Shown here piece by piece: positions 1 to 61,865 of a stretch of DNA of 64,000 bases. Origin of the DNA: an uncultured bacterium (GTDB taxonomy: Bacteria; Oederibacteriota; Oederibacteriia; Oederibacteriales; Oederibacteriaceae); the NCBI GenBank assembly GCA_965112635.1, contig OZ218778.1, positions 1,824,001 to 1,888,000 on the forward strand, given 5' to 3'. A program made the translations under genes and the position numbers. The first letter of the stretch is position 1; every line of letters starts with the position of its first letter. The notes under the pieces were generated by a model. That model saw only the letters and a program-made list of their open reading frames with translations. It made no database searches and was not told the DNA's origin.

Positions 1-3000
1 ACCACTAACGGGGGACACAAAATTTCCGGAATGGTATTAGTAGGGGGGCAGACTTTTAGCCAGCTCGGTTATTTAAATAACAGCAGTAATTTACCTGTTT
101 TTATTTTTAATTCCAGCAATGTTTGGCGTGACGGAAACAGCCTGGACTCGTTGGGTAACTATATTTCACACCAGCTTCCTGACGGAACTTATACCCTGAA
201 GCTTAACCAGAGATTTTTGAGTACTGCCCAGATCAGTCCGACCCTTGCGGGCGTTGACCTCTACAATCAGAACTTTAACCTTACCGTGGATCCCACACAG
301 GATATCTTTTATCCCTATGCCAGCCAGCTCTATCCGGCCAACAATATGACCATTCTCAACAGCCAGCCGACCATCAGCGCGTCTCTGTCCGATGGGACGC
401 TGGGCACTGCTATCCAGAACATCTCGACCAAAATAGACGGCGGCACGGTGGGGAATACTTTCAATTCCGGCGTGGTGAGCTTTAGCCCGGCTGCGGCTCT
501 TTCCGGCGGGTCTCACAGTGCTGAGGTCAAGTTCAGTGATTCCGCCAGCCCTTCAGCCCACAGCCAGGATGAGGTCTGGACCTTCAGTATTGCCACCTCC
601 ACCAACACCCCTTCTTCCACGCTGACCTCTACGATGACACAAACGCCGACACCCTTGCCTACACCCGTTTTCACCAGTATCAACGGCGGGCCCAGCGCGT
701 TCCTGGGCGAGGGTGCCACTGCCCAGACCATAACTATTGTCGGAAACAATTTTGGAGGAACCATCGGGTCAGTAAGTTTCAGCGGGGCTGGTGTCACAGT
801 GACCAGCTATCCAGCCTGGAACAACACTACTATCACTTTATCCGTCAATGTGGATACCTATGCTCCCACCAACACCATTCCCGACCGATTTCTCACTATT
901 GTCAACGGGTCCAACGGCGGCTCCGCGATGACGGGAAATGTGTTTTATGTGGTGCCCCGGCCCAATGCCAGCATTACCACATTCATGTATCCTTCCAACC
1001 TGGGTCAGGGAGCTGTAAACGCTACCATCGATATCTTTGACCCCTCAGGATATTTCGGGTCAACTCCGGGCTCGCTCCTGCTGGATGCTCCCGGCCATAC
1101 CAATATCACCTCGTACAGCATTCAGGCGTGGGACAGTCATTCCATCACCATGACCGCCAGCGCTAGCAGCAGCGCTATTCCAGGCGACTATGGACTGACC
1201 ATCACCGCCTCTTCGGCCAGCGGATCCGGTATTGGTGTGTTTAATTGGTTCTCAGTTGTGCCCGGCCCCGTGGTCAACAGTGTTTCCACCACATCCAACC
1301 TCAACTATCTGGGCCAGGGCGCAGTCAATCAGATTGTGAATGTCTATGGCGCTGGGTTTGGGGCTAGCCGTGGGACAAGCGGGTCAGTCAGTTTCAGTGG
1401 GCCCGGTATTACAGTAAACGGATATCCAAGCTGGAGCGATAGTCAGATACAGGTCAATGTATCTGTTGCGCTAAATGCTTGGACCACATCCCGGACGGTC
1501 ACCGTGGTGAACGGCCTGAACTACGGCCAGGTAACCACGGGCAATATATTCAGCGTATCTCCTTCCCCCAATTCGTTCGGTTTCACGGTGATGACCCCTC
1601 CCGGCTTGTTCCAAGGGGCTAGCAACGTGACCATCAATCTCTATGACCCCAATGCGACTTTTGGGACCGCTCCTGGTTTGCTGCTGCTGGATAGCGCCAG
1701 CGGTAATGCCAACATTACCTCTTATAGCCCCAATATGTGGAGCGCTAATTCCATTACCCTGACCGCCAGCGTGAGCAGTACTGCCGCCTTTGGGTACTAT
1801 GCCCTGACCATCACGGCGAATGTCGGTAACGGGTCCGGTGTCGGGGCTTTCAACGGGTTCCGCATCATCCCGTCGTCCACGGCTACAGCCACGGCAACGG
1901 CGACGGCAACCAGCACCGCCACCGTGACGACCACGGCCACGCAGACAGCCACCCAGACGGCGACCCAGACGGCCACCAATACCGCCACAACCACAGCAAC
2001 TAGCACGGCTTCTAGTACGGCTACCAATACGGCGACCCAGTCTGCCACAGCTACGAGCACGGCAGCATTCACAGGGACCTATACAGCTACGGGCACGGCT
2101 ACCCAGACTGCCACGAATACAAACACCGAGACCGCGACCAGCACAGCAACAAATACGGAGACCCAGAGTGCCACTAATACGGCTTCCCAAACAGCATCCC
2201 AGACCGTGACCCTGACGGCTACAAATACAGCTACGAATTCAGCGACGGCCACGGCCACCAATACGGTGACGCAGACCGCCACAGCCACTGGCACGGCAGC
2301 ATTCACAGGGACCTATACAGCTACGGGCACGGCTACTCAGACTGCCACGAATACAAACACCGAGACCGCGACCAGCACAGCAACAAATACGGCTACCCAG
2401 ACGGCCTCCCAGACGACCACTCAGACCACCACGGCAACGGGCACGGCAGCATTCACAGGGACCTATACGGCCACAGGAACGGCTACCCAGACGGTTACGA
2501 ATACGGACACCCAGACTGGGACCAGCACAGCTACAAATACGGCTACCCAAACCTCCAGCCAGACGGCTTCCCAAACAGCATCCCAGACCACAACCCAGAC
2601 GGCCACCAATACCATAACGAATACAGCTACGGCCACAGTCACCAGCACGATCACACAGACCGCCACAGCCACGGACACGGCAGCATTTACAGGGACCTAT
2701 TCAGCTACGAGCACGGCTACCCAGACGGTTACAAATACAGCCACCCAGACAGCGACCAGTACGGCGACGAATTCAGCGACTGAAACGGTTACCGGCACGA
2801 TCACCCAAACCGCCACAGCCACCAATACCATAACGAATACTGCGACGGCCACGGCGACCAGCACGATTACCCAGACCACCACAGCCACGAATACGGCTGT
2901 ATTCACAGGGACCAATACGGATACGAGTACGGCTACCCTGACGGTCACCAATACGGATAGCCAGACGGCTACGGCTACAGCCACCCAGTCGGCTACCGCC

Positions 3001-5004
3001 ACGACCACGGCAACGGCGACCTATACCGGGACCATTACCAACACGGCTACGGAAACCGCGACCGCGACCCTGACGCTCTCCACCACCGAGACTGCCACCT
3101 CGTCCTTGACCCAGACGATTACGCTGACTGCTACCGCCACCAACACGGCCACCGAGACTATGACCACCACGGCAACCCTGACCTCCACGGTAACAGGGTC
3201 CCAGACCGTGACCGCTACGGAAACCCTGACCGCTACGATCACTTTGACCTTTACGGACACGCCAGTCAATACCGGCACAGCCACCGTGACCGCGACCTAT
3301 ACGGCGACCAATACGGTCAGCCCGTCTGCGACATACACCGCGACTGTGACGGCATCGGGCAGCCCTACAGTCACGGCGACCATAACCCAGACCATGACCC
3401 AGACCATGACGATGACCGTTTCGCCGACAGCGACTGATTCAGGCACTCCGACCATAACCAATACCCAGAGCCAGACCGCCACCATCACTCTGACCTCTAC
3501 CGTGACTTTGACGGGCACCCAGACACAAACACCCTCCCAGACCTTTACCCCGGGCGGGTCCACAGCGCCGGGAGGATTGACCATCACCGCCCAGCTCAAT
3601 CAGGAAATTGACCTCAAATGGAATGCCGCGATACAGGGTTATTACCGCATCACCAACTATAAGATTTATAGGAACGTTGGAGTGCCGGGTCCGCCTTGGC
3701 TGAACTCTTTCCAGGTCAACTCAACACAATTGTCCTATCAGGACCACAACGTGACGAACGGGACCCTTTATTACTACACCGTGGCTGCGGTAGACAGTCA
3801 ACTTAACGAAGTGGCAGCATTCCCCGTCTATGGGACGCCGCAAAATATCGTTGATCCCGCTCAAAATCTTGCGGCTTCCTGCGGGAGCGGCGGCATTACC
3901 CTTACCTGGAACGAGCCCTATGGGGGCAGCAGAACATTGAACTATTTCAATGTATTCCGTTCAACCACTCCGGGGGGGCCATATCCCATTACCGTAACAG
4001 CGGTTACTTATACTTCAGCAGGCTATGCCGATTCTTGCCTGGATCCCTACGCTCCCAACGGGATGACCATTTATTACATTGTGATTACGTATGATAATGC
4101 CGGTAATCCCAGCACAGGGTCCAACGAAGCCAGCGTGGTCAACACCAAATCTTTGGATGGCTATGTTTACAAAACCGACGGGAGTACTCCGATTTCAGCA
4201 GTTTCTGTTTACGCCTATCTGAACGGCTTGCAGCAGAGTGTGGCCACGACGGATGTTACAGGTTATTACTCGTTCTTTAACCTGTCCGACGGGATCTATA
4301 GTGTCCAGGCTTCAGCCAGCACTTTGGAAGGGATATTGAGTTCGGCTTACCAGCCGGCTGCCACAGGCATGTCCGGGTTTAACTTTACCCTGGAGGTCAA
4401 CTATGTACTGAGCGTGGTGAGCGGGGCGTTGGATATGAAATCAGCCAAGGCCAAAGCCGCGTCCATTACAGCCATTCACACCTATGCCGCGGAAGGAAGC
4501 TGGATAGAATTATGGCAGAACGGCCGGTCCCTGGTTAGGGTCAACACAGACCCCAATGGGAACTTCACCATACCCAACCTGCTTTCCGGGATGTACCAGG
4601 TCAGGGGATACTATAACGGGGTGGAGGTGGTCACCCAGACCGTGACTCTGCATGCCGGCGAGCGTCTGGCTTTGAACCTCAACGGGGTCAACGGCGTGCC
4701 AGATGACCAGGTTTACGTGTTCCCCAACCCCGCCAAGACAGGCAGCGCGACCTTCAGGTTCCAGGTAGGCTTTACAAACTACGATATATCGCTGAAGATA
4801 TTCACGCTGGCCGGCGATATGGTCAGGGAGTTCACGAACACGGATATCAGCTGCAACACGACCGATTGCAGGGTCAAGTGGGACCTCACCGACGAGCAGC
4901 ACAAGGCAGTCGCCAGTGGCGTTTATTTCTATGTCCTGAAAGTGAAGGACTTGGATACCAATAACCTCTACACGGTGGTCAAGAAAGTGGCTGTGATAAA
5001 GTAA
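1..5004 (+). CDS. Large surface protein, 5'-truncated by the window edge: Ig-like and four IPT/TIG-like domains, ~560-aa Thr-Xaa tract, two FN3-like domains, two carboxypeptidase-regulatory-like domains, C-terminal FlgD-Ig/T9SS-like CTD
   Basis: Frame is open from base 1 (TTNGGHKISGM), so the real start is upstream. Repeated LGQGAxN...W(N/S/D)xxxI units; Thr tract ~1873-3552; LKWNA...YKIYR...YYYTVAAVD FN3 pattern; C-terminus VYVFPNP...LKIFTLAGDMVR...KWDLTD...ASGVYFY...KKVAVIK. Confidence 0.85.
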   Translation, partial: TTNGGHKISGMVLVGGQTFSQLGYLNNSSNLPVFIFNSSNVWRDGNSLDSLGNYISHQLPDGTYTLKLNQRFLSTAQISPTLAGVDLYNQNFNLTVDPTQDIFYPYASQLYPANNMTILNSQPTISASLSDGTLGTAIQNISTKIDGGTVGNTFNSGVVSFSPAAALSGGSHSAEVKFSDSASPSAHSQDEVWTFSIATSTNTPSSTLTSTMTQTPTPLPTPVFTSINGGPSAFLGEGATAQTITIVGNNFGGTIGSVSFSGAGVTVTSYPAWNNTTITLSVNVDTYAPTNTIPDRFLTIVNGSNGGSAMTGNVFYVVPRPNASITTFMYPSNLGQGAVNATIDIFDPSGYFGSTPGSLLLDAPGHTNITSYSIQAWDSHSITMTASASSSAIPGDYGLTITASSASGSGIGVFNWFSVVPGPVVNSVSTTSNLNYLGQGAVNQIVNVYGAGFGASRGTSGSVSFSGPGITVNGYPSWSDSQIQVNVSVALNAWTTSRTVTVVNGLNYGQVTTGNIFSVSPSPNSFGFTVMTPPGLFQGASNVTINLYDPNATFGTAPGLLLLDSASGNANITSYSPNMWSANSITLTASVSSTAAFGYYALTITANVGNGSGVGAFNGFRIIPSSTATATATATATSTATVTTTATQTATQTATQTATNTATTTATSTASSTATNTATQSATATSTAAFTGTYTATGTATQTATNTNTETATSTATNTETQSATNTASQTASQTVTLTATNTATNSATATATNTVTQTATATGTAAFTGTYTATGTATQTATNTNTETATSTATNTATQTASQTTTQTTTATGTAAFTGTYTATGTATQTVTNTDTQTGTSTATNTATQTSSQTASQTASQTTTQTATNTITNTATATVTSTITQTATATDTAAFTGTYSATSTATQTVTNTATQTATSTATNSATETVTGTITQTATATNTITNTATATATSTITQTTTATNTAVFTGTNTDTSTATLTVTNTDSQTATATATQSATATTTATATYTGTITNTATETATATLTLSTTETATSSLTQTITLTATATNTATETMTTTATLTSTVTGSQTVTATETLTATITLTFTDTPVNTGTATVTATYTATNTVSPSATYTATVTASGSPTVTATITQTMTQTMTMTVSPTATDSGTPTITNTQSQTATITLTSTVTLTGTQTQTPSQTFTPGGSTAPGGLTITAQLNQEIDLKWNAAIQGYYRITNYKIYRNVGVPGPPWLNSFQVNSTQLSYQDHNVTNGTLYYYTVAAVDSQLNEVAAFPVYGTPQNIVDPAQNLAASCGSGGITLTWNEPYGGSRTLNYFNVFRSTTPGGPYPITVTAVTYTSAGYADSCLDPYAPNGMTIYYIVITYDNAGNPSTGSNEASVVNTKSLDGYVYKTDGSTPISAVSVYAYLNGLQQSVATTDVTGYYSFFNLSDGIYSVQASASTLEGILSSAYQPAATGMSGFNFTLEVNYVLSVVSGALDMKSAKAKAASITAIHTYAAEGSWIELWQNGRSLVRVNTDPNGNFTIPNLLSGMYQVRGYYNGVEVVTQTVTLHAGERLALNLNGVNGVPDDQVYVFPNPAKTGSATFRFQVGFTNYDISLKIFTLAGDMVREFTNTDISCNTTDCRVKWDLTDEQHKAVASGVYFYVLKVKDLDTNNLYTVVKKVAVIK

Positions 5005-5053
5005 TGCCCTTAAAAAGGAAAGGGTCAGGAAGATGAGAATAAGGAGAGCTGGT

Positions 5054-7069: not shown

Positions 7070-7134
7070 CACTAAAAAACAGATGGTCATTAGCGGTCTG
7101 TGTATGGATAAAACTATTTAAAAGGAGGGGTTAG

Positions 7135-7879
7135 ATGAAAAAATTAAATAGAAAGGAAATGGCCTGGCTCTCAGTGGGGGTTGGGCGCGGTTTTATGCGG
7201 TTTAGCAGCCGTGTGCGTGATCCTGCCTTTAGCCGCCGCAAAAGCCGATTCGCCCATTGCCATTGTGACATTCTTGGCCGGGCCCGTGGATGTCCAGAAG
7301 GCGGGAGCCGTACAGTGGAATCCTCTAAGGCGTGGCGATTATCTCTATGAGGACCAGGTAGTCAAGACAGGCCGAAGGGCCCAAGTTGCTCTTTTTTATA
7401 CCGAGGGAACTGAGTTGAGGCTGAACGGAGACACAACCTTAAACGTGGGGACCAAGGAGAAAAAGGTCGTGTCCGCGGGGATGCAGGTAGTCCGTACCAT
7501 CAAACTTATGATCGGTGAGTTCTGGGGGCAGTTTGCCAAGACCTCTGACACCGGTGTTAGCTACGATATAAAAACCTCTTCCGCCGTGGCCGCGGTCAAA
7601 GGCACCAAGTTGGATTCTGAAGCACAATCCTCAGGCGCTTCAGCTTTTTCTGTGATGGAAGGATTGGTACAGGTCAGCAATAATTTGGGCAGCGTGAATG
7701 TCGGCGCGGGAATGAAAACCACCGTCCAAGCCGGCGGCGCGCCCACCGCACCCAAGTCGTTTGCCAGTCGTGCTGCATGGGAAGCAGGGATGAACGGGAA
7801 ATCTCCCAAAACATTGATCCTTAAGATCAAAGGAAAGGGTGGCGCGGAGAGAGAATTGAAAGTGTTCCTGCAAAAGTAA
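7135..7879 (+). CDS. FecR-domain periplasmic protein; apparent +1 frameshift in the G5 run at 7176-7180
   Basis: AAGGAGGGG RBS precedes ATG 7135 (MKKLNRKEMAWLSVG). Removing one G joins it to the 7181 frame and completes a signal peptide (LGAVLCGLAAVCVILPLAAAKA). FecR motifs GPVDVQKAG...GDYLYEDQVVKTG and TSSAVAAVKGT...VMEGLVQV. Confidence 0.75.
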
Positions 7880-10057: not shown

Positions 10058-10085
10058 TATTTTATTCCAGTTTGGAGGATTGATC

Positions 10086-16235: not shown

Positions 16236-19200
16236 ATGAGTTTGTGGGGCAGAAGGTTTGACAAAGAAGACAAAATAATATTTTGGATTACATTTTCAAT
16301 ATTATTTTGTCTTTTCTTTTTTTGGCTTGTCTTTTTTATGCCTGGTCCAGAACATGAGATTCCCCAATATGTTTACGCGGCAGGTACAAACACCGCTACT
16401 GCGACCGCAACCAGGACAGCTACGAAAACTGCAACGCAGACAGCTACGAGTACTATAACCAAGACGGCTACGAGCACGGCTACTAATACCGTGACAAACA
16501 CAGCGACAAGTTCAGCGACGCGGACATCGACCCAGACTGCCACTGCAACCGCCACGCAGACCTATTCTCAAACTGCAACCGTTACCAGGACAGCTACGAA
16601 TACGGCAACTAACACTGCTACAAATACAGCTACCCAGACGTCGACTCAAACTGCCACTGCAACCGCCACGCAGACCTATTCTCAAACTGCAACCGTTACC
16701 AGGACAGCTACGAATACGGCAACTAACACTGCTACAAATACAGCTACCCAGACGTCGACTCAAACTGCCACTCCAACCGCCACTCAGACCTATTCTCAAA
16801 CTGCAACCATTACTAGGACGGCTACGAACACGTCTACTAACACCGCTACAAATACAGCCACTAATACTGCAACGAATACTTCCACAAGTTCAGCGACGCG
16901 GACATCGACTCAAACAGCGACAAGTACAGCTACTAATACGATGACAGGCACAGGGTCAGCGACCAATACGGCAACCAATACCGCAACCAACACCGCTACA
17001 AATACAGCGACCCGGACATCGACCCAGACTGCCACTGCAACCGCCACTCAGACCTATTCTCAAACTGCAACCATTACTAGGACGGCTACGAACACGTCTA
17101 CCAACACCGCTACGAATACGGCCACTAATACTGCAACGAATACTTCCACAAGTTCAGCGACGCGGACATCGACTCAAACGGCGACAAGTACAGCTACTAA
17201 TACAGTGACAGGCACAGGGTCAGCGACTAATACATCAACAAGTACCGCAACAAATACGGCGACAAGCACAACAACCAATACGGTGACGAATACTGCAACT
17301 AACACAACCACAAACACTACCACCCAAACAGCTACGCAAACTGCTACGAACACGGTAACTAATTCAGCTACCAACACTGCCACCCAGACAGCGACCAATA
17401 CAGCTTCCCAGACGGCAACGCAAACAGCCACAAACACGGAAACGCAAACGGCTACTCAGACAGCTACTCAGACCGCGACAGCGACAGCAACGGTAACAGG
17501 ATCAGTGACGAATACATCAACGCAAACAACCACAAATACAGCCACGAATACCGCGACCAATACGGAAACCCAGACATTAACCTCGACTATTACTGCCACT
17601 GTTACTTCAACGGTAACGGCAACAAACACGGCCAGTCAAACAGCAACAAACACATCCACAAATACCATGACGAATACGGAGACCCAGACAATAACCTCGA
17701 CTATTACTGCCACTGCTACTTCAACGTTGACTGCAACAAACACAGCCACTCAAACAACAACAAATACAGCCACGAATACTGCATCGAATACGGCGACCAA
17801 TACGGTTACGAATACAACCACAAACACGGCGACCAGCACGGCGACGTATACGGCTACTAGTACGATTACCCTGACCATTACGGCAACAGCAACATCTACG
17901 GCTACAGCAACAAATACCCCCACCAACACCGCGACTAATACTGCAACTAGGACAGCTACGAGTACAATAACCCGGACGGCTACGAGCACGGCTACCGCAA
18001 CAAGTACATCTACTCGGACAGCAACAAATACAGCCACGAATACTGCGACGAATACAGCGACAAGTACGGCGACCAGAACGATTACTTTGACCGCTACGGC
18101 CACAGCTACAAATACTGCAACACGGACAGCTACGAGCACGGCTACCGCAACAAGTACATCTACTCGGACAGCAACACAGACAGCCACCAATACGGTTACG
18201 AATACAGCGACAAATACTGCAACAAGGACTGCTACGAGCACGGCTACCGCAACAAGCACATCTACTCGGACGGCAACCCAGACAGCTACCAATACGGCAA
18301 CCCAGACAGCTACCAATACGGCTACCCAGACAGCAACTCAAACTGCCACTGCAACTGCCACGCAGACCTATTCTCAGACTGCAACCGTTACCAGGACGGC
18401 CTCTAATACGGCTACTAACACTGCGACAAATACAGCTACCCAGACAGCAACTCAAACTGCCACTGCAACTGCCACGCAGACCTATTCTCAAACTGCAACC
18501 GTTACCAGGACGGCCACGAATACGGCTACGAACACTGCTACCAACACAGCCACTAACACGGCCAGCAACACAACTACTCTGACAGCGACTTCAACTGCTA
18601 CTACTACAGCTACAACTACGGTTACGGCCACCAATACGGCCTCTAATACTGCAACTAACACAGCTACAAACACAGCTACAAACACAGCCACCAATACAGC
18701 TACGAACACAGCAACTCAAACTGCCACTGCAACTGCCACGCAGACCTATTCTCAAACTGCAACCGTTACCAGGACGGCCACGAATACGGCTACGAACACT
18801 GCTACCAATACAGTTACTCAGACGGCGACAATTACAGCTACCCAGACAGCAACTCAAACTGCCACTGCAACTGCCACGCAGACCTATTCTCAAACTGCAA
18901 CCGTTACCAGGACGGCCACGAATACGGCTACTAACACTGCTACCAATACAGCTACTCGGACAGCGACCTCAACGGCTACCGTTACAGCCACATCTACGGT
19001 TACAGCCACAAATACCGCCACGAACACAGCCACGGCTACAGCTACGCAGACCTATACTTTGACCAACACCGCTACAGCTACATCCACGAACACAAACACG
19101 CAGACGGCTACCAGCACGGCCACTTACACGCTAACCAGCACCGCTACCGCCACGGCCACGCAGACCTACACGTTGACTAATACAGCTACCGTTACATCCA

Positions 19201-22200
19201 CGAATACGAACACGCAGACGGCTACGAGCACGCAGACCTATACTTTAACTAACACAGCCACCGCCACGGCCACGAACACGAACACGCGGACAGCTACCAG
19301 CACGGCCACTTACACACTAACCAGCACAGCCACGGCTTCGGCTACACAGACCTACACGTTGTCCAACACCGCTACCGCTACAGCCACGAATACGAACACG
19401 CGGACAGCCACGAGCACAGCGACCTGTACGTTGACCAGCACAGCCACCGCCACGGCTACGCAGACCTATACTTTAACTAACACCGCTACCGCCACGGCCA
19501 CGAATACGAATACGCGGACGACTACCAGCACGGGGACCTATACGCTAACCTTCACGGCAACCGCCACGGCTACGCAGACCTATTCTTTGACCAACACAGC
19601 TACCGCTACGGCCACGAATACGAATACACAGACGGCCACGAGCACGGCTACCTATACTTTGACCAGCACCGCCACGGCTACGCAGACTTATTCTTTGACC
19701 AACACAGCTACCGCTACGGCCACGAATACGAATACGCGGACGGCTACCAGCACAGCTACCTATACTTTGACCAGCACAGCTACGGCCACCGCAACGCAGA
19801 CCTATACTTTAACTAACACCGCTACCGCCACGGCCACACAGACCTATTCTTTGACCAACACAGCCACCGCCACGGCCACGAACACGAACACGCGGACAGC
19901 TACCAGCACGGCCACTTACACACTAACCAGCACAGCCACGGCTTCGGCTACACAGACCTACACGTTGTCCAACACCGCTACCGCTACAGCCACGAATACG
20001 AACACGCGGACAGCCACGAGCACAGCGACCTGTACGTTGACCAGCACAGCCACCGCCACGGCTACGCAGACCTATACTTTAACTAACACCGCTACCGCCA
20101 CGGCCACACAGACCTATTCTTTGACCAACACGGCTACCGCTACATTCACGAATACGAACACACAGACCGCTACGAGCACGGCGACCTATACGCTAACCAG
20201 CACAGCCACGGCTACAGCTACGCAGACCTATACTTTGACCAACACCGCTACAGCTACAGCCACGAACACAAACACGCAGACGGCTACCAGCACGGCCACT
20301 TACACGCTAACCAGCACCGCTACCGCCACGGCTACGCAGACCTATACTTTAACTAACACCGCTACCGCCACGGCCACGCAGACCTATACTTTAACTAACA
20401 CCGCTACCGCCACGGCCACGCAGACCTATACTTTAACTAACACCGCTACCGCCACGGCCACACAGACCTATTCTTTGACCAACACGGCTACCGCTACATT
20501 CACGAATACGAATACACAGACCGCTACGAGCACGGCCACTTATACGCTAACCAGCACTGCTACCGCCACGGCTACGCAGACCTATTCTTTGACCAATACA
20601 GCTACTGTCACGAATACAAATACGCGAACGGCTACGAGCACAGCTACCTATACTTTGACCAGCACAGCTACGGCCACCGCAACGCAGACCTATACCTTGA
20701 CCAACACCGCTACAGCTACGACTACGAACACGAACACGCAGACGGCTACGAGTACGGCCACTTATACGCTAACCAGCACAGCCACGACCACCGCTACGCA
20801 GACCTATTCTTTGTCCAACACCGCTACCGCTACAGCCACGAATACGAACACGCGGACAGCCACAAGCACAGCGACCTGTACGTTGACCAGCACAGCCACC
20901 GCCACGGCCACGCAGACCTATACTTTAACTAACACCGCTACCGCCACGGCCACACAGACCTATTCTTTGACCAATACAGCTACTGTCACGAATACAAATA
21001 CGCGAACGGCTACGAGCACAGCTACCTATACTTTGACCAGCACAGCTACGGCCACCGCAACGCAGACCTATACCTTGACCAACACCGCTACAGCTACGAC
21101 TACGAACACGAACACGCAGACGGCTACGAGTACGGCCACTTATACGCTAACCTCCACGGCCACAGCTACGCAGACCTACACCTTGACCAGTACCGTTACT
21201 GCCACGGCCACGAATACGAATACGCAGACAGCTACGAGCACGGCCACCTATACGCTAACCAGTACAGCAACCGCTACGATCACGAATACGAACACGCGGA
21301 CGGCTACCAGCACGGCGACCTATACGCTAACCAGCACTGCTACCGCCACGGCTACGCAGACCTATTCTTTGACCAATACAGCTACTGTCACGAATACAAA
21401 TACGCGAACGGCTACCAGCACAGCTACCTATACTTTGACCAGCACAGCTACCGCCACGGCCACACAGACCTATTCTTTGACCAACACGGCTACCGCTACA
21501 TTCACGAATACGAATACACAGACCGCTACGAGCACGGCGACCTATACGCTAACCAGCACAGCCACGGCTACAGCTACGCAGACCTATACTTTGACCAACA
21601 CCGCTACAGCTACGGCCACGAACACAAACACGCAGACGGCTACGAGCACGCAGACCTATACGCTAACCAGCACAGCCACGGCTACAGCTACGCAGACCTA
21701 TACTTTGACCAACACCGCTACAGCTACATCCACGAACACAAACACGCAGACGGCTACCAGCACGGCCACTTACACGCTAACCAGCACCGCTACCGCCACG
21801 GCCACGCAGACCTACACGTTGACTAATACAGCTACCGTTACATCCACGAATACGAACACCCAGACCGCTACCGCCACGGCCACACAGACCTATTCTTTGA
21901 CCAACACAGCTACAGCTACGGCCACGAACACAAACACGCGGACAGCTACCAGCACGGCCACTTACACGCTAACCAGCACCGCTACCGCCACGGCCACGCA
22001 GACCTATACTTTAACTAACACCGCTACAGCTACGGTTACGAATACAAACACGCGGACGGCCACAAGCACGGCTACCTATACTTTGACCAGCACCGCTACA
22101 GCTACGAATACGGCCACGAACACGGCTACCAATACGGCTACTAGCACAGCTACAAATACGGCCACCCAGACGGCGACCTCAACCGCTACCGCCACAGCTA

Positions 22201-25200
22201 CATCTACGGTTACCGCCACCAATACGGCCACCAGCACTACTACCAGCACAGCAACTAATACGACTACCAACACAGCTACTAATACAGCCACCCAGACCGC
22301 TACCGCCACGGCCACACGGACCTATTCTTTGACCAACACAGCTACGAACACAGCTACACCAACGCTGACCTCAACTACTACCGCAACAGCTACATCTACG
22401 GTTACAGCGACCAATACGACAACGAATACTGCAACAAATACGGCTACGAACACAACTACTCAGACAGCGACCTCAACTACTACTGCCACAGCTACATCCA
22501 CGATTACAGCGACCAGCACGGCTACTAATACGGCCACTAACACAGCAACCAATACTGGGACAAATACTGCCACGAATACTGTTACCCAGACGATGACCGC
22601 AACTATTACTGTCACAGCTACATCTACAGCTTCAGCCACCAATTCGGCTACGAACACAGCTACTAACACGGCGACTAATACGGCCACGAACACGGCTACA
22701 AATACTGCCACGAATACAGCCACCCAGACGGCGACCTCAACTGCTACCGCCACAGCTACATCTACGGTTACCGCCACCAATACGGCCACCAGCACTACTA
22801 CCAGCACAGCAACTAATACGACTACCAACACAGCTACTAATACAGCCACCCAGACCGCTACCGCCACGGCCACACAGACCTATTCTTTGACTAACACAGC
22901 TACCGCTACATCCACGAACACAAACACGCAGACGGCCACAAGCACGGCCACTTACACGCTAACCAGCACAGCTACGGCCACCGCTACGCAGACCTATACT
23001 TTGACCAGCACCGCTACAGCTACGGTTACGAATACAAACACGCGGACGGCCACAAGCACGGCTACCAATACGGCTACTAGCACAGCTACAAATACGGCCA
23101 CCAACACAGCTACGAACACAGCTACACCAACGCTGACCTCAACTACTACCGCAACAGCTACATCTACGGTTACAGCGACCAATACGACAACGAATACTGC
23201 AACAAATACGGCTACGAACACAACTACTCAGACAGCGACCTCAACTACTACTGCCACAGCTACATCCACGATTACAGCGACCAGCACGGCTACTAATACG
23301 GCCACTAACACAGCAACCAATACTGGGACAAATACTGCCACGAATACTGTTACCCAGACGATGACCGCAACTATTACTGTCACAGCTACATCTACAGCTT
23401 CAGCCACCAATTCGGCTACGAACACAGCTACTAACACGGCGACTAATACGGCCACGAACACGGCTACAAATACTGCCACGAATACAGCCACCCAGACGGC
23501 GACCTCAACTGCTACCGCCACAGCTACATCTACGGTTACCGCCACCAATACGGCCACCAGCACTACTACCAGCACAGCAACTAATACGACTACCAACACA
23601 GCTACTAATACAGCCACCCAGACCGCTACCGCCACGGCCACACAGACCTATTCTTTGACCAACACAGCTACAGCTACGGTTACGAATACAAACACGCGGA
23701 CGGCCACAAGCACGGCTACCAATACGGCTACTAGCACAGCTACAAATACGGCCACCAACACAGCTACGAACACAGCTACACCAACGCTGACCTCAACTAC
23801 TACCGCCACAGCTACATCTACGGTTACAGCGACCAATACTTCTACGAATACAGCTACTAATACGCCCACCAATACAGCTACTTGGACTGCGACCCCAACC
23901 GCCACTGCCACATCAACATCTACAGTTACAGACACCAGTACAGCTACTTATACTGGGACAAATACGGCTACGAACACCACTACCAATACGGCCACTAACA
24001 CGGCAACCAACACAGCGACGAATACAGCTACAAGTACGGCAACCAGCACGAGTACCACGACAAATACGGTAACGAATACAGTTACTAACACAGCCACAAA
24101 TACGGTTACTTGGACAATGACTAATACGGCTACCAACACAGCTACAAATACAGCCACCCAGACGGCGACCTCAACTGCTACCGCCACAGCTACATCTACG
24201 GTTACAGCGACCAATACGACAACGAATACTGCAACAAATACCGCAACGAACACAACTACTCAGACAGCGACCTCAACTACTACTGCCACAGCTACATCCA
24301 CGATTACAGCGACCAGCACGGCTACTAATACGGCCACTAAAACAGCAACCAATACTGGGACAAATACTGCCACGAATACTGTTACCCAGACGATGACCGC
24401 AACTATTACTGTCACAGCTACATCTACGGTTACCGCAACCAATACGGCCACAAACACAGCTACGAATACGGCTTCTCAGACAACAACAGCAACAACTACT
24501 ACTACAGCTACCAATACAGCTACTAATACGTCCACCAATACTGCTACTTGGACTGCGACCCTAACTGCCACTGCCACGTTAACATCTACAGTTACGGCCA
24601 CCAGTACAGCTACTTATACTGGGACAAATACGGCTACGAACACCGCTACCAATACAGCTACTTGGACAGCAACTAATACGGCCACCAACACAGCTACGAA
24701 CACAAATACTCAGACAGCGACCTCAACTGCTACTGCCACGGCTACGTCTACTAATACAGTAACCAATACGACAACCAATACGGCCACAAATACTGCAACA
24801 AATACATCCACGATTACAGCTACCCAGACGGCAACAACAACTGCTACTGCCACTGCTACATCTACGGTTACAGCTACCAATACAGCTACTGATACGACAA
24901 CGAATACGGCCACAAATACGACTACGAACACCACTACCAATACGGTTACTAACACGGCAACAAATACAGCGACGAATACGGCTACCAGTACGGCAACCAG
25001 TACGAGTACCACTACGAACACAGCCACGAACACAGCCACTAATACTGCGACAAATACAGGCACAAATACTGCTACCCAGACGATGACATCAACTGTTACT
25101 GCCACAGCTACATCTACTGCTACAACTACCAATACGGCGACCAGCACGGCAACTAATACAGCTACGAATACAGCTTCTCAGACAGCAACCGCAACCCCTA

Positions 25201-29836: not shown

Positions 29837-30232
29837 ATGAACTGGAAAAAGGTTGTTCTTTGTATTTTTATTACCCTTTTCTCCTTATGGGGCAATCTTG
29901 CATTCAGCCAAGGCATTCCATGGCTGGACCAAGATGGGTTGTTTCTGGGCCATAACAAGATCAATCCGCTGAATCATGAGTCTGTATCTGTTGTCTATCA
30001 TTTGGCGCAGGACACCCATGTGGTCATAAAAATTTATGATCTTTCCGGCCAGAAACTTATCAGGACATTAGTGGACGGGAATTTTGGAGGGAGTTGGTCA
30101 TACCAAGTTTTTTGGGATGGCACCAGTAGAAGTGGAGATGTTGTTGGAAATGGTATTTACGTCATTCAGTTAGTAACCAAAAGTGTAAATATACTCAAAT
30201 TCATTGCCGTGGTTAAAACCACAGGCAGTTAA
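29837..30232 (+). CDS. Small secreted protein consisting only of a FlgD-Ig/T9SS-like CTD
   Basis: Signal peptide (MNWKKVVLCIFITLFSLWGNLAFS) then LFLGHNKINP...IKIYDLSGQKLIRTLVD...FWDGTSRSGDVVGNGIYVI...KFIAVVK. Confidence 0.8.
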   Translation: MNWKKVVLCIFITLFSLWGNLAFSQGIPWLDQDGLFLGHNKINPLNHESVSVVYHLAQDTHVVIKIYDLSGQKLIRTLVDGNFGGSWSYQVFWDGTSRSGDVVGNGIYVIQLVTKSVNILKFIAVVKTTGS

Positions 30233-36084: not shown

Positions 36085-36100
36085 GGAAAGGAGTTAGTCC

Positions 36101-54159: not shown

Positions 54160-54201
54160 AGCCTATCCCTTGCGTAAAAGCAGGGGATAGGCTTTTTTTT
54201 T
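54160..54201 (+). terminator. Intrinsic terminator
   Basis: AGCCTATCCCTTGC-loop-GCAGGGGATAGGCT followed by a U-run. Confidence 0.9.
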
Positions 54202-54314: not shown

Positions 54315-56981
54315 ATGGGCAGACGACTCGTTTTACTTATCATCCTATTTTGGTCTGTTTCGGCCTGGAAAGCTGAGGCGGCAGTGTACTGGTATATGGA
54401 GGCGCCCGGCTGGGTCGAACCCACCGGCAATCCCGATTGGACGAACCTGTCGTACTTTAATGTCTACAACGAGCTGACCACCACGGCCACAGGCCCAATC
54501 CTCGTGACCTATACCCTGGCGAATGGTCTCACTTTTAAGCCCGTCTCTTTCGGATTACAGCCGTCCAGCGTCAACTATGACGCCGGCACCGGGGTGACCA
54601 CCGTGACCTATAATTTGGGCAGTATGGCCGGACAGACCAATAACTATGGTTATTGCGGCTTTGCTATCAATTACACCACGGTCAACCCCACGACCCTGAT
54701 CCAGGAAAACCAGCAATTCACTGTGACAGCGACCCTGAGCGGGGCCAGCAGCGTCAGTGCCAACCCCCAGAGCTTCCAGGCGCCCGCTTTATTCGAGACC
54801 GTCGGCAAGAACATTGATCCCGACCCGATCGAGGCGGTGCCGAGCACGGCCACGGCCAACCTCTATTTGGAAACTTCGCAATATTATAACTGCTCCAACC
54901 TCGTGGTCTGGGATACGCTTCCCAACGGCACCTCCTACATCCCCGGCACCAGTTATCTGGATAACGAGACCAGCGATGAACCCGGGTCCGGGACCCAGCT
55001 CTGCCGTCCTGACGGGACTTCGCTGCTGGTGTGGTCTGTTCCAGCTGACCCTTGGACCCTGGCCGGGTCAGACCCCGTCCTGAGCTACGGGTTCACCATC
55101 AACTCGAATTACAGCGTTACGGGCTGCGACAGCGCCGGAGCGCCGGTCTATTGCACCGACATGCTGCCCAATCTCGTGGGTGACAGCTTTAATTACGCCA
55201 GCATCAGCGGCCAGTCCCCGGCCAACGCGGGATCCGCCCTGCAAACCGGTGTGTTTGCGGACATCGATATCGACGACCCCTCCATCACCAAGACCATCGG
55301 GAGCATTACCGACAGCCAGGGTAACCCTGTTTCGGGTAGTTATGTCACGCCCGGCGATATCGTGACCTACAGCATCACGGTAGTTTCTCCGACGGCACCT
55401 ACCCATGACCTCAAGGTCAGGGATTTCCTGCCATCATCCATGGCTTTTTTGGGTTCCCTTACCAATTACACCACGACCGGAGGCGTGCCCGCGCCGACCC
55501 AGAGTTTTGTCAATTCCAATTTGTGCTACTGGACCTGGTCCGCGGATTTTCCCAAGGGCGGGTCCTGGAACGTCACCTTCCAGACCCAAGTGCTGGATAA
55601 TACCTATTTGCCCGACCCCGGGGCCTCGACCCTGACCAACATGGGCGATTTTTGGGACACTAATACCTCGGGGACCACCTCGGGGTTGGGACAGTACGAT
55701 GCCCCGGATTTGACCTACCAGAACAATGTGGTTACGACCAAGAGCGCCAGCAAAAGCACGGGTACTGGCGGCGATATCATTAACTATACGATCGCGGTCA
55801 CCAATAACGGCGGCAGGGCCATTAACAATGTTGAGGTCTTTGACACCATCCCGGCCGGCATGACCTATGTCAGCAGCACGCCCACGGCCAGTTCCGAGGC
55901 CGTCAACGGGGACTCCAGCACCACGGTCAAATGGAACAACCTGGGGATTCTGAACCCCGGCAGTTTCCTGACCCTCTATGTGTCCGCCTCGGTCAATCCG
56001 GGCGACCCGGGAGGGGAGACACTGACCAATTTTGTCGCCCCTGTTTTTTACTCCTCCCAGCTGACCCCTGGAGCGCCCGGGAGGAACTATTACAACGGCG
56101 TTACGGCTTTGGCCAGCGTGCAGGTGGCCACCTGGACCATGACCCCGACCCAGACCAGGACAGCGACCGCCACCAGCACGCAGACCTATACCGCCAGCGC
56201 GACCGCCACCCCCACCAGCACCGCGACCCAGACCTCGACGGCGACGCAGACCCTGACCAGGACCTATTCGCTTACCGGGACGCAGACTTTCACTCTCACG
56301 CAGACCCTGACCCCGTCCCTGACGCTGACCAGCAGTTACACGGCCACCGCCACCAGCACGGCCACGCAGACATCCACTTCGACCTTGACGCTGACCCCAT
56401 CCGAAACTTTTACCCCCAGCGAGACGGCCACTTACAGCCAAACCTCCACGCAGTCCTATACGGTCACCCTGACCCTGACCCCTTCCAAGACTTTTACCCC
56501 CAGCGAGACGGCCACGATCACTTTGACCTGGACCATCACCTGCACTTCGACCAATTCCTATACCAGCACGCAAACCCTGACCCCTTGCCAGACCCTGACG
56601 CCATCCCAGACCCTGACGCCATCCCTGACCCAGACCCATACCCCAACCTTGACGCCGTCCCACACCGCGACAGCCACGCCTACCTTTATCACCACACCTC
56701 CCGCAGTCGGGACATCCTTTATTTATCCCTCACCGGCTACCGGGGACACGGCGGCCATTGCTTTTTTCATGTCCGTGCCAGGGAACTTCAAGATACGGGT
56801 GTATAACGAGGCAGCCGAACTGGTGGAGACCGTAGAGGGGAATATGCAGGCAGGGCCGCAGTTGAGCATGATCCATACTAGGGACTATGTTTCAGGAGTT
56901 TACTTGTATATTATCAAGTTGGATTACGGGTCGCAGGGTTCCATCAAAATCGGTCCCAAGAAGTTCATTGTGTTGCATTAG
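54315..56981 (+). CDS. Secreted surface protein: DUF11 (conserved-repeat) domains, ~190-aa Thr-Xaa tract, T9SS-like CTD
   Basis: Signal peptide ending AEA-A; DUF11 motifs (VWDTLPNGTSYIPG, PGDIVTYSITV...VRDFLP, GDIINYTIAVTNNG...DTIPAGMTYVS); Thr tract ~56128-56700; FIYPSPATGD...IRVYNEAAELV...SGVYLY...KKFIVLH. Confidence 0.85.
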   Translation: MGRRLVLLIILFWSVSAWKAEAAVYWYMEAPGWVEPTGNPDWTNLSYFNVYNELTTTATGPILVTYTLANGLTFKPVSFGLQPSSVNYDAGTGVTTVTYNLGSMAGQTNNYGYCGFAINYTTVNPTTLIQENQQFTVTATLSGASSVSANPQSFQAPALFETVGKNIDPDPIEAVPSTATANLYLETSQYYNCSNLVVWDTLPNGTSYIPGTSYLDNETSDEPGSGTQLCRPDGTSLLVWSVPADPWTLAGSDPVLSYGFTINSNYSVTGCDSAGAPVYCTDMLPNLVGDSFNYASISGQSPANAGSALQTGVFADIDIDDPSITKTIGSITDSQGNPVSGSYVTPGDIVTYSITVVSPTAPTHDLKVRDFLPSSMAFLGSLTNYTTTGGVPAPTQSFVNSNLCYWTWSADFPKGGSWNVTFQTQVLDNTYLPDPGASTLTNMGDFWDTNTSGTTSGLGQYDAPDLTYQNNVVTTKSASKSTGTGGDIINYTIAVTNNGGRAINNVEVFDTIPAGMTYVSSTPTASSEAVNGDSSTTVKWNNLGILNPGSFLTLYVSASVNPGDPGGETLTNFVAPVFYSSQLTPGAPGRNYYNGVTALASVQVATWTMTPTQTRTATATSTQTYTASATATPTSTATQTSTATQTLTRTYSLTGTQTFTLTQTLTPSLTLTSSYTATATSTATQTSTSTLTLTPSETFTPSETATYSQTSTQSYTVTLTLTPSKTFTPSETATITLTWTITCTSTNSYTSTQTLTPCQTLTPSQTLTPSLTQTHTPTLTPSHTATATPTFITTPPAVGTSFIYPSPATGDTAAIAFFMSVPGNFKIRVYNEAAELVETVEGNMQAGPQLSMIHTRDYVSGVYLYIIKLDYGSQGSIKIGPKKFIVLH

Positions 56982-59589: not shown

Positions 59590-59718
59590 GCTTTTTCCCT
59601 TTCCGTAACTTGATAATCGATCCCTAACTCTCTATACTTTAACAGAAAACTATTGTAATCTCATTTGCAGGCACGAACAATACCTGAAGAAAAACCATTG
59701 GTAAAAAAGAAGAAAACC

Positions 59719-60885
59719 ATGTTCCCAGGGAAACGACGAATCATCGCCTTGTTGGTGGTCTTTGGGGCCGTTGCGGGTTGGTCGGCAGTCCATGCTCAGA
59801 CGAATACTGCGACCAATACGGATACTGACACTGAGACGGCTACTGCAACCGCAACTCCCTCCGCTTCCGCGACAACCACCATGACTCTTACAGTCACCCC
59901 AACTCCCACGGCTTATTTATCCCTTATGAAGGTTGTGACGCCCAGCGGGGTTATCCTTCTTCCCGCGACTACCCAGACCCCAGTCACTTTTACCATCAGC
60001 TATTCCAATACGGGAGGCGAAGTTCTGACCAATGTGATGATTTGGGATACGCTTAATACCGGTTTGTGCTACCTGACCACCACGGCAGGGGCAGCCCTGA
60101 CCGCCGACAGCGTCATTTCTTGCACTTCAGGTTCTTTCCTGGTCTGGAACGCGCCATCTCCTCTAGTTCCCGGGAGCAGCGGCAATATTGTTTTTTCAGC
60201 CCTAATTAATAATGTGCCCTATTACACCAATATAACTAATTTTGCGCTGGCCGGAGCCGACCAGCTAGCCAGCCCCGTGACCTCCACGACCACCAGTTCA
60301 ATAATTATTTATACCCTTCCTCAGGCGGGGAGCGCTCCTCCTACCTTTGTGTTGAATAATTTGTCCCTGCAGTTATCTTGGACCCCCGGCATAGCTGGAA
60401 GTTATCCTATAGCGGGATATCCTGTTTGGCGCAGCGCTGACGGTGGCTTTTCCTACTCGCAAATCACTTTGACCGGAAGCAGCATTACCAGTTGCACCGA
60501 CCAACTTCCCGCAGTCCAAACGTTTATTTACCTCGTGAAGGTGATGGATACCCTGGGCAATGAAGTCGCTTATCCGCCTCTTGTCCTTAAACCTTTGCCG
60601 GTCAGCATGGCACTGGACCACAACAGTTTTAATCCAGCCAAGGGCGGAACCTTGAACGTCAAATATCACCTCAGACAGCTCGGCAGTGTGTCCATCTACA
60701 TCTATAACCTCAGGGGAAATCTGGTCAGGAAATTGGTGGATGACACGGAGACTTTCGGGGAACATGTGGCCCAGTGGGACGGAAAGAACGGACAAGGAGA
60801 TACAGTCAGCAGCGGGGTTTATTTGTTCCATTTAGAAGCCGCGGGAGGGGATGCCGTGAACCAGAGAGTGGCGGTCATCAAGTGA
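59719..60885 (+). CDS. Secreted protein: short Thr-Xaa tract, DUF11-like domain, FN3-like domain, FlgD-Ig/T9SS-like CTD
   Basis: Signal peptide ending VHA-Q; TNTATNTDTDTETATATATP; VTFTISYSNTG...IWDTL; LSWTP...YPVWRS; LDHNSFNP...IYIYNLRGNLVRKLVD...WDGKNGQGDTVSSGVYLF...QRVAVIK. Confidence 0.85.
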   Translation: MFPGKRRIIALLVVFGAVAGWSAVHAQTNTATNTDTDTETATATATPSASATTTMTLTVTPTPTAYLSLMKVVTPSGVILLPATTQTPVTFTISYSNTGGEVLTNVMIWDTLNTGLCYLTTTAGAALTADSVISCTSGSFLVWNAPSPLVPGSSGNIVFSALINNVPYYTNITNFALAGADQLASPVTSTTTSSIIIYTLPQAGSAPPTFVLNNLSLQLSWTPGIAGSYPIAGYPVWRSADGGFSYSQITLTGSSITSCTDQLPAVQTFIYLVKVMDTLGNEVAYPPLVLKPLPVSMALDHNSFNPAKGGTLNVKYHLRQLGSVSIYIYNLRGNLVRKLVDDTETFGEHVAQWDGKNGQGDTVSSGVYLFHLEAAGGDAVNQRVAVIK

Positions 60886-61865
60886 TGGATAATTTCTTTC
60901 ACCCAGGAAAATGCAGGAAGATCAATCCCGTGATCTTTGCTTGCTTATTTGTATTGTTCCCAACTTTTTTTATTGGGGTCTTTCCCAGCTTGAGCTGGGG
61001 CGGGGGAGCAGGAACAACTGGCGCTGATATTATGGCAGAGGAGTTGGGGGCCAGGCCCAGGGGCATGGGAGGCGCTTATGGGGCTGTGGCCAATGACGCC
61101 AATGCCGTAGATTATAATCCAGCGGGATTAACTCAGATCCTAAGGTCCAATGCTACCCTAACCCACTGGATCGAATTGGACGGCACGACCCTTGATTTCA
61201 TTAGCTATGTTTTGCCCCTGGGAGCCATGGGGACCGTGGCGGGCAGTGCGACCCTCCGTCAAGTCCCTTCCATCAGCAATACGACCGCTGAACCGTCAGT
61301 CAATGTGGACGATATTCTGGTGGGTCTATCCGGGGCAACAAAACTGGAGAATTGGTGGCCTGGTTTGTCGGGCGGAATGTCCTTAAAATTTGTCAGCTCC
61401 ACCCTGGGAAACTATACGGCTTATACGGGAGCCCTTGACGCAGGGGTCCTCTTGGAGGACCTGCCCTACCATTCCAAGGCGGCTTTGGCCATGGAAAATT
61501 TAGGTATGCCTATCAAATACATTGATGTGGCCGACCCCCTTCCGTTTTGCTTAAGGTTGGCCGGCTGCAGTCAGATCTTTGAAGATAGCGTCAAGGAGCT
61601 ATTAGTAGCCGCTGATCTCGTTCAACCAATCAATGGCTACGCCAACTTGGACATCGGGGCTGAATTCATTTACCTCGGGTTCGTAGCTTTCAGGGGAGGT
61701 TATACCTTGGATTTTCAGGAAGGAACAAGGGGGCTCGTGGGCGGCCTTGGGATCAAGTATGTTTGGGATAAGACCGATTACAGACTGGATTATGCCTACA
61801 ACCCTTTTTACTGGAAAAATAGTTACACGCCCACCCATCTGATCTCTCTGTCCGTATTCTTTTAA
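60885..61865 (+). CDS. PorV/UPF0164 (FadL-like) outer-membrane barrel
   Basis: TGATG overlap with the upstream CTD gene; LGARPRGMGGAYGAVANDANAVDYNPAGL; ALDAG, MENLG, AFRGGY, RLDYAY, THLISLSVFF. Confidence 0.87.
   Translation: MDNFFHPGKCRKINPVIFACLFVLFPTFFIGVFPSLSWGGGAGTTGADIMAEELGARPRGMGGAYGAVANDANAVDYNPAGLTQILRSNATLTHWIELDGTTLDFISYVLPLGAMGTVAGSATLRQVPSISNTTAEPSVNVDDILVGLSGATKLENWWPGLSGGMSLKFVSSTLGNYTAYTGALDAGVLLEDLPYHSKAALAMENLGMPIKYIDVADPLPFCLRLAGCSQIFEDSVKELLVAADLVQPINGYANLDIGAEFIYLGFVAFRGGYTLDFQEGTRGLVGGLGIKYVWDKTDYRLDYAYNPFYWKNSYTPTHLISLSVFF

Follow-up and report, generated by a model that had tools for sequence, protein, structure and literature searches.

Genes for proteins with type IX secretion-like tails lie beside genes for PorV/PorQ-family barrels in an uncultured bacterium

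Here, we analysed a stretch of 64 kb from an uncultured bacterium of the lineage Oederibacteriota (assembly GCA_965112635.1, contig OZ218778.1, positions 1,824,001 to 1,888,000 of the forward strand), called the window below, in which genes for putative surface proteins that end in one shared domain, the tail, stand next to genes for outer-membrane barrels. Exactly five open reading frames (ORFs), with their ends at 5004, 29780, 30232, 56981 and 60885, terminate in the same beta-sandwich domain of about 90 aa, and in all five it occupies the extreme C-terminus. Two barrels are encoded in the same window. The gene of the first begins 6 nt after a tail-bearing gene, and the ATG of the second overlaps the stop codon of another tail-bearing gene by 1 nt (TGATG); judging from this sequence, the genes of the second pair are translationally coupled. 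An earlier note on this DNA had compared the tails and barrels with the C-terminal domains and the PorV shuttle that Bacteroidota have in their type IX secretion system (T9SS), and had proposed a divergent pathway of export or display directed by the C-terminal domain.

All five tail-bearing genes are located on the + strand, which carries nearly all genes of the window. The first of them (1..5004) encodes a large surface protein whose 5′ end lies beyond the window edge; 1667 aa are seen, the tail is at about 4690-5001, and no gene for a PorV-family barrel follows downstream. The second (16236..29780) encodes a protein of 4514 aa composed of an N-terminal hydrophobic segment, a Thr stretch of about 4300 aa, an Ig-like domain and the tail (about 29463-29777). 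Thr makes up 48.4% of this protein and stands at every second position (T-X, X being mostly A, N, S or Q) throughout the stretch of about 4300 aa; no Pfam or NCBIfam match was obtained at E <= 0.01, and the protein may form a surface fibre, glycosylated or rich in beta structure. At 16-28 kb, this reading frame causes both the extreme skews (GC skew about -0.37, AT skew +0.38) and the many spurious antisense ORFs. Between the giant gene and the gene of barrel 1 lies a gene for a protein of 131 aa (29837..30232), which consists of a signal peptide and the tail domain and nothing else, and which could serve as a cap, a placeholder or a minimal cargo. A counterpart of this tail-only protein, 126 aa long, is encoded immediately upstream of a barrel gene, in an Elusimicrobia metagenome-assembled genome (MAG; L044:808-1185, FlgD_ig 31.5 bits). 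The remaining two genes encode DUF11-type surface proteins with signal peptides. One, of 888 aa (54315..56981), carries DUF11 repeats (DUF11 52.5 bits, TIGR01451 60.4 bits) and has no barrel gene directly adjoining; the other, of 406 aa (59665..60885), has a Thr-rich linker and the tail at about 60568-60882, and is the one that overlaps the gene of barrel 2. A hydrophobic or signal-like N-terminal segment was read by eye in all four complete tail proteins, in keeping with the earlier note.

The five tails have in common an NP/SP turn (5/5), the motif I(Y/F)xxxG/A (5/5), a W (4/5) and the motif (S/N)G(V/I)Y (5/5), and their C-terminal ends read KKVAVIK, KKVAVVKQ, KFIAVVKTTGS, KKFIVLH and QRVAVIK. 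When a profile of the five copies was run against 756 stop-to-stop ORFs of at least 40 aa, only those five were returned (E <= 2.5e-31; next 0.041). A profile made from 75 tails of other genomes, which had themselves been picked with the window-derived profile, returned the same five only (E 6.6e-26 to 4.9e-5; next 4.7). Thus, the set of five that the earlier note had described was recovered by re-counting of the motifs and by both profiles. The weakest and most divergent copy is the tail ending at 56981, found with E 6.8e-32 by the window profile and 4.9e-5 by the external one.

Known models of such domains recognise the tails only in part. TIGR04183 (type A, cut-off 23 bits) gave 25.7 for the 131-aa protein and 23.5 for the 406-aa protein, with no match for the other three tails, and PF13860 FlgD_ig (cut-off 27) gave 34.3 for the tail of the 406-aa protein and 21.1 for another tail. 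PF18962 Por_Secre_tail reached 22.1 at a cut-off of 27; CHU_C likewise remained below its cut-off in the window tails, and was passed by the tails of two relatives, L080 and L009. Among NCBIfam models, the tail of the protein ending at 5004 matched the PorU model (40.5 bits, positions 987-1094) and an M6-like model, each at the C-terminal end only. Taken by cut-off, two of the five tails pass TIGR04183, and barely, and one passes PF13860, the rest being below the cut-off or unmatched.

The AlphaFold2 model of the tail-only protein is a beta sandwich with a pLDDT of 84.6, exceeding 90 over residues 40-125; solved type A C-terminal domains have seven strands, according to the available part of the report on them (PMC10994853). 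In the PDB, the best match of this model is a PorU chain (6za2_A, E 1.7e-5), followed by FlgD, C5a peptidase and PorZ, and a PDB search with the profile of the five window tails placed the C-terminal end of PorU at the top (residues 1063-1154, E 8.3e-6). With a wider tail profile, the ends of PorU and PorZ were found at 3.7e-10 and 3.4e-7, respectively, compared to 0.016-0.2 for the tails of cleaved cargo (8glj_D, 8glk_D, gingipain); the wider profiles contain one Bacteroidota PorU tail and two PorV rows, a bias of which the window-only profiles are free. By these sequence comparisons, the window tails resemble the tails of PorU and PorZ more than those of cleaved cargo. Neither PorU nor PorZ loses its tail, and they remain attached to PorV and PorQ.

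The gene of barrel 1 (30239..31891, + strand) encodes 550 aa; behind the signal peptide and a hatch-like N-terminal segment come 14 strands (about residues 72-310), and a TPR-like helical domain closes the protein (residues 312-549; TPR_2 64.9 bits). The gene of barrel 2 (60885..61865, + strand), whose most likely start is the ATG at 60885, encodes 326 aa. The two barrels are paralogues (27% identity, E 4e-26), and both exceeded the cut-off of the PorV/PorQ subfamily model NF033709 (90 bits), with 161.5 for barrel 1 and 104.8 for barrel 2, scored as 60774/60885-61865, and nearly the whole model covered. Together with the 6-nt gap and the 1-nt overlap, these scores bear out the earlier statement that two PorV/UPF0164-like barrel genes abut tail genes. 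Barrel 2 was also recognised by an external profile with E 9.4e-55. The Pfam family UPF0164, which we take to be a Treponema FadL-like family, gave 31.5 for barrel 1 at a cut-off of 21.4, and PF03349 Toluene_X (cut-off 29.7) gave 18.8 bits for barrel 1 and none for barrel 2. Neither window barrel was matched at E <= 0.01 by the PorP/SprF family TIGR03519, for which weak sub-threshold matches appeared in the relatives L012 and L079 only, or by the NCBIfam BamG model.

In the AlphaFold2 model of barrel 1 (pLDDT 85.1) the 14 strands are placed between residues 72 and 310, together with a hatch; the hatch of the barrels bears an NPAG motif. Foldseek against the PDB returned PorV chains first (8gl6_F, E 5.7e-13; 6h3i_F, 1.8e-11), and then FadL, TbuX and TodX. 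A profile of the two window barrels had PorV as its sole match in the PDB (E 2e-11), and a wider profile matched PorV at 3.1e-47 compared to 1e-12 or weaker for FadL. A gene for a TPR/HEAT-repeat protein (31998..33998, + strand; HEAT_2 35.5 bits, TPR_2 19.0 bits) with an N-terminal hydrophobic segment starts 106 nt downstream of barrel 1, and it may share the operon of barrel 1 or belong to the system.

To see whether the pairing goes beyond this stretch, we searched genome contigs with a profile of the two-barrel alignment. As many as 341 stretches matched, 89 of them encode relatives, and the best 80 were kept as related loci (L001 and so on), each covering 20 kb or less per genome; the window itself was not among the matches. 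A tail-ending ORF recognised by the window-derived tail profile was present no more than 400 nt upstream of the barrel, on the same strand, in 68 of these 80 loci, which had been picked via the barrel; seen from the other side, 71 of the 78 tail-ending ORFs in those loci occupy this very position. Both counts are lower bounds, as the upstream protein of L004 has a tail-like end that the profile missed. The pairing of tail gene and barrel gene is thus beyond local chance and is conserved across phyla.

Among the best 80 loci, the nearest barrels belong to MAGs of Elusimicrobia/Elusimicrobiota, at about 32-39% identity (37, 35 and 32%; top 37-39%), and further matches come from Zixibacteria, Ignavibacteriales, Firestonebacteria, Edwardsbacteria, Lindowbacteria, Latescibacterota, WOR-3 and others. 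Many pair-bearing hosts are phyla of the FCB (Fibrobacterota-Chlorobiota-Bacteroidota) group, namely Zixibacteria, Ignavibacteriota, Calditrichota and Chlorobiota. Near-identical barrels were met under different phylum labels in L022, L024, L061 and others (Ignavibacteriales and Zixibacteria), and the submitters' labels of these records are hence unreliable for phylum. In the barrel tree both window barrels fall outside any well-supported clade, barrel 2 on a long branch, and a blastp comparison of 36 window proteins with all ORFs of the related loci revealed no close synteny or high identity. The nearness of the Elusimicrobiota barrels is thus no more than a lead to the position of the host. 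In the ESM Atlas, SecA of the window led to clusters of Actinomycetota, Bacillota and Campylobacterota at 0.99, a spread without value for taxonomy.

The loci differ in their layout. A single pair, as in the window, is found in 11 of 12 Elusimicrobiota loci and in loci of Firestonebacteria, Lindowbacteria, Edwardsbacteria, Chlorobiota and Fidelibacterota, and two or three pairs share one locus in L005, L010, L012 and L040. In a trio layout, a protein of about 900 aa is followed by two barrels; this was observed in Zixibacteria (15 loci), Ignavibacteriota (12) and Calditrichota (1), and the trio barrels form two clades in the barrel tree, each with a support of 100. The large protein of the trio is propeller-like and ends in the tail domain. 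It was considered as a PorU and rejected, as NF033707 did not match and only weak glycosylhydrolase, BNR and Reg_prop matches were obtained; the trio may be the counterpart of PorZ with PorQ and PorV. Its neighbourhood is syntenic and of a housekeeping kind, with an etfA-like gene, an isocitrate-dehydrogenase-like gene, an amidase and ligA (L011, L014, L015, L020, L031, L049, L063 and about 30 more loci, around positions 6200-10900). The sole Bacteroidota locus, L078, which served as a control, encodes a classical PorU (1225 bits), then PorV, then a second PorV, and it was the only source of PorU among the 52 related-locus proteins scanned.

The passengers of the relatives vary widely: a 3301-aa FN3 array is among them, as are kelch and NHL propellers, an M6 peptidase, CBM11/CBM30, PKD and CarboxypepD_reg arrays. 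At least 150 residues follow the barrel in 5 of 91 full-length barrel matches; the C-terminal extension is OmpA-like in L005, L053, L040 and L079, and of the TPR type in barrel 1 of the window.

For docking, barrel 2 and the 105 C-terminal residues of the 406-aa protein were modelled as a complex, an alignment being supplied for either chain. The complex scored 0.88 (0.90, 0.88 and 0.87 in three runs), compared to 0.01 for the best of three controls. Of 80 solved complexes 58 attained that mark, as did 2 of 110 mismatched pairs, a calibration that is rough only, since own alignments were used here. The three runs share at least 95% of contacts, and the pLDDT of the partner is at least 87. The predicted contacts involve the loops that join strands 1-2, 3-4, 5-6, 7-8, 11-12 and 13-14 and an N-terminal segment at residues 40-52; they were placed by hand, through a pairwise alignment of the barrels, onto the strand map of barrel 1, and by this mapping of our own they lie on a single face of the barrel, opposite the C-terminal extension. 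In the model, this docking face should be extracellular, because it is opposite the extension, which in relatives is OmpA-like (peptidoglycan-binding) and so periplasmic. The loops of PorV hold the tail in the SprA pore, as far as the available text of PMC10994853 describes it, which agrees with the model. Thus, an interface between tail and barrel loops, asked for in the earlier note, is indeed predicted.

The surroundings of these genes were assessed as well, and all statements below on missing T9SS core genes within the window refer to its 64 kb. NCBIfam was run on 21 window proteins, in which the models of SprA, PorK/L/M/N and PorU found no match beyond the tail domain, the NF033707 (PorU) matches being confined to the tail part of that model; the earlier note had recognised no SprA or PorK/L/M/N gene here either. 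The other 21 ORFs, scanned with Pfam, gave ordinary matches or none. No tRNA genes and no Rfam matches at the gathering score were found in the 64 kb. The housekeeping set comprises a four-subunit 2-oxoacid:ferredoxin oxidoreductase, thiG, thiE, serA, purA, secA, tsaB, rimI, a porin and an M23 peptidase; judged from these genes, the window is part of the chromosome of a diderm bacterium, probably an anaerobe. Shine-Dalgarno-like cores precede 15 of 27 assumed starts, compared to 11% at random positions, and are as conspicuous as had been claimed. Such sites are rarely used by Bacteroidota, and their frequency speaks weakly against a classical Bacteroidota host. The same claim is weaker for TTGACA/TATAAT promoters: 17 promoter-like sites were seen at 44-64 kb (10.3 +/- 3.4 expected) and 13 at 1-17 kb (15.5 +/- 3.5 expected), which amounts to no overall enrichment, with a few sites well placed, e.g., at 59610-59638 ahead of the gene at 59665.

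Several other features of the window were recorded. A strong terminator-like hairpin (14-bp stem, T run) at 54160-54193 lies between a GH123-like gene and the DUF11 tail-bearing gene. Directly after the operon of barrel 1, a partner-switching module occupies 34102-36460; it consists of a 660-aa protein in which an anti-sigma-type kinase domain, a sensor, HAMP and a SpoIIE phosphatase are fused, and then a STAS protein. The tail gene ending at 5004 is followed by genes for FecR-domain proteins (5033-7069 and 7181-7879) resembling the models of Leptospira LipL45/Lsa33, and similar FecR-type proteins come after the tail-barrel pair in three Elusimicrobia loci (L001:9133-10737, L002:5645-6922, L003:10909-12072). 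At 14464-15951 a secreted-looking protein of 495 aa is encoded, which had no Pfam or NCBIfam matches; a lead, and a lead only, came from the ESM Atlas (score 0.89), where PF04371 (Porphyromonas-type peptidyl-arginine deiminase) is present in 83% of the members of the cluster indicated. The + strand ORFs 7997-9217 and 9180-9947 overlap in different frames and read together like one outer-membrane protein, which starts with a signal peptide and runs through a beta-rich body to the end ...ANMGF; no family matched, and the split suggests a frameshift or a sequencing error. This product was tried as a third barrel and does not belong to the PorV family (E 0.46; hhalign probability 0.7%), and a further candidate at 62663-63259 is not of the PorV/PorQ family.

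When the pairs are set beside known systems, PorV with its type A C-terminal domains (the SprA-PorV-substrate complexes of F. johnsoniae, PDB 6h3i and 8gl6) offers, of all solved chains, the closest match in structure and in sequence, with a 14-stranded FadL-like barrel, a C-terminal beta-sandwich tail, and docking that is modelled here on the extracellular loops, as reported for PorV in the available part of PMC10994853. However, PorV is one general carrier per cell, whereas the window barrels adjoin particular passengers, barrel 1 has a TPR extension of 240 aa, and no SprA was seen in the window. The P. gingivalis attachment complex, with PorQ-PorZ and PorV-PorU, is similar in that a PorV/PorQ-family barrel is paired with one protein, and the gene order porU-porV is present in the Bacteroidota control L078. 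In both of these pairs the partner protein keeps its C-terminal domain. The passengers of the window differ from these partners in being adhesin- or fibre-like, not a sortase or a protein delivering lipopolysaccharide (LPS), and several pairs occur per genome region. The PorQ-Z sub-complex is reported to form independently of PorU and PorV (available part of PMC10947112).

In SprF-SprB and PorP-PG1035-PorE, the gene of a large adhesin has its cognate barrel gene linked to it, and the barrel is described as a carrier and then a surface anchor (PMC9143113, in the part available); genetic linkage of cognate shuttles to their cargo is also reported in the accessible text of PMC12618676. PorE is a periplasmic TPR/OmpA protein bound to the PorP barrel, according to the portion of PMC12773672 at hand, whereas in barrel 1 and some of the relatives barrel and TPR or OmpA part form one protein; the barrel family is also another one (TIGR03519 unmatched), and the tails are nearer to type A/FlgD_ig than to type B. 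BamG-BamH presents a FadL-like 14-stranded barrel that holds an extracellular protein by its loops, with a conserved N-terminal segment in contact (PMC12578637, available text), to which residues 40-52 of barrel 2 may be compared; unlike our tail proteins, BamH is a lipoprotein without this tail domain, and BamG is bound to BamA. Finally, FadL-like proteins of Treponema pallidum likewise combine a barrel with a periplasmic helical TPR extension, but they are read as nutrient importers, and the available part of that report describes no tail-bearing partner gene (PMC8407342). The tails and barrels are true relatives of T9SS parts, in line with the likeness noted earlier; a correction to the earlier note is that their nearest counterparts are dedicated pairs (PorQ-PorZ, PorV-PorU, SprF-SprB) and not the general PorV shuttle.

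On balance, we lean towards a dedicated role of each barrel, as carrier or anchor of the neighbouring tail-bearing surface protein, with an SprA-type translocon located elsewhere in the genome. Homology, folds and the conserved gene order are shown by the data above, whereas the docking face is a prediction of the complex model. The passengers, that is, the DUF11 adhesin-like proteins, the 4514-aa Thr-rich fibre and the tail-only protein, would cross the inner membrane by Sec, each of them terminating in what appears to be a T9SS-type beta-sandwich domain. The tail would then dock onto the extracellular loops of the barrel encoded beside it. We infer that the barrel would act as a carrier and subsequently as a lasting anchor, so that the passenger would be displayed on the cell surface, and that a periplasmic extension, TPR here and OmpA-like in relatives, may link the complex with partners in the periplasm or with the cell wall; a fusion of this kind would merge the roles of PorP and PorE. 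The outer-membrane step would require a pore that is absent from the window, most likely an SprA-type T9SS translocon encoded elsewhere in the genome.

A number of results count against this view. Neither barrel reached the cut-off of the PorV equivalog NF033710 (250; 62.9 and 20.3 obtained) or of the PorQ equivalog NF033711 (220; 77.0 and 50.4), whereas the Bacteroidota control L078 scored 438.7 and 366.9 on NF033710. Only two of the five tails reach the TIGR04183 cut-off, and barely. Five tails are present for two barrels, which makes one-to-one pairing impossible for all of them, and no translocon gene was seen in the window. The related loci were chosen via the barrel and are hence biased to tails near barrels, the wider profiles carry the bias named above, and PorV with a bound tail has already been solved (8gl6 and related; PMC10994853, available part), so that the docking score of 0.88 may reflect memory or likeness.

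Another explanation would dispense with the SprA pore altogether. Tail and barrel would be a self-sufficient display module of two genes, co-assembled at the outer membrane, e.g., by the barrel assembly machinery (BAM) as the barrel folds, and each passenger would need its own barrel. It is in keeping with this explanation that the pairs stand alone amid housekeeping genes, that the second pair appears translationally coupled, that several pairs may lie in one locus (L005, L010, L012, L040) and that some hosts are labelled as lying outside the FCB group (Elusimicrobiota, Firestonebacteria, Lindowbacteria); a precedent exists in BamG-BamH and BamG2-H2, where a FadL-like barrel grips an extracellular protein by its loops and one putative operon encodes both (PMC12578637, available text). 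T9SS core components were found neither in the window nor in 40 neighbour ORFs of single-pair loci nor, at E <= 1e-25, in 42 neighbour ORFs of trios. However, this absence says little, because T9SS genes are usually scattered, even in Bacteroidota, and the neighbourhoods span 20 kb. Moreover, there is no known route for a 4514-aa passenger through or beside a hatch-plugged 14-stranded barrel, the tails and the barrels are both clear relatives of T9SS parts, and many hosts of the pairs belong to FCB-group phyla, for which superphylum T9SS has been described (PMC11205867, in the part available). It seems unlikely to us that the pair is a self-contained module working outside the FCB group without SprA pore or PorKLMN motor; if it were, carrier and cargo of the T9SS would go back to an earlier invention, made independently and combined with a translocon later on, in Bacteroidota. 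The SprA-dependent reading receives a larger share of our confidence than SprA-independent co-assembly, which we hold to be a minority prospect. Of the divergent pathway proposed in the earlier note, the cross-phylum pairing and the predicted docking stand, whereas a mechanism distinct from T9SS and a host outside the FCB group go beyond what is shown; many related pairs come from FCB phyla.

The barrels could also be extra PorV paralogues of an ordinary T9SS, which would take tails from SprA to a PorU-type sortase, where the tail is cut and the passenger released or linked to LPS. Type A substrates are known to end in this way (PMC10994853, as far as available), two of the five tails do pass TIGR04183, and the nearest solved relative of the barrel is PorV. 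On the other hand, PorU was found neither in the window nor near any non-Bacteroidota pair scanned (52 proteins, with PorU in L078 only), the tails are nearer to those of PorU and PorZ than to those of cleaved cargo, and a general shuttle needs neither a gene beside each passenger nor a TPR/OmpA extension; we consider such transient shuttling rather improbable. Least of all do we expect the barrels to import hydrophobic nutrients in the manner of FadL, a role proposed for the TPR-extended FadL-like proteins of Treponema pallidum, with their position by tail genes being meaningless. Although the fold is FadL-like, the hatch carries NPAG and barrel 1 passes UPF0164 (31.5 at a cut-off of 21.4), such importers would hardly account for adjacency in 68 of 80 loci over many phyla or for a docking score of 0.88 when the best control gives 0.01; in addition, Toluene_X stayed at 18.8, under its cut-off of 29.7, and the match to PorV is far better than that to FadL (E 3.1e-47 compared to 1e-12 or weaker).

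Tail and barrel as such are already within public models, and would be annotated as 'T9SS type A sorting domain-containing protein' and 'PorV/PorQ family protein'. A literature search, which did not cover subscription journals and supplements, found no description of dedicated pairs of tail and PorV-family barrel outside Bacteroidota, of TPR/OmpA fusions or of tail-only partners, and no link between T9SS and Elusimicrobia in the texts available. To our knowledge, PorV is taken in the T9SS field as a general shuttle, and dedicated carriers are known for type B signals only (PorP/SprF). Here, tails that are type A-like or FlgD-Ig have PorV/PorQ-family barrels of their own, gene by gene, across Elusimicrobiota, Firestonebacteria, Lindowbacteria and several FCB phyla. 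The pair is a simple unit for studying tail recognition, and lets one ask whether carrier and cargo work without the large T9SS machine. A new export mechanism is possible. If the host has a full T9SS, the finding would be an ordinary extension of known biology. If the barrels are indeed dedicated carriers and anchors, this would account for the way in which fibres of great size, the 4514-aa Thr-rich protein among them, are retained on the cells of uncultured lineages.

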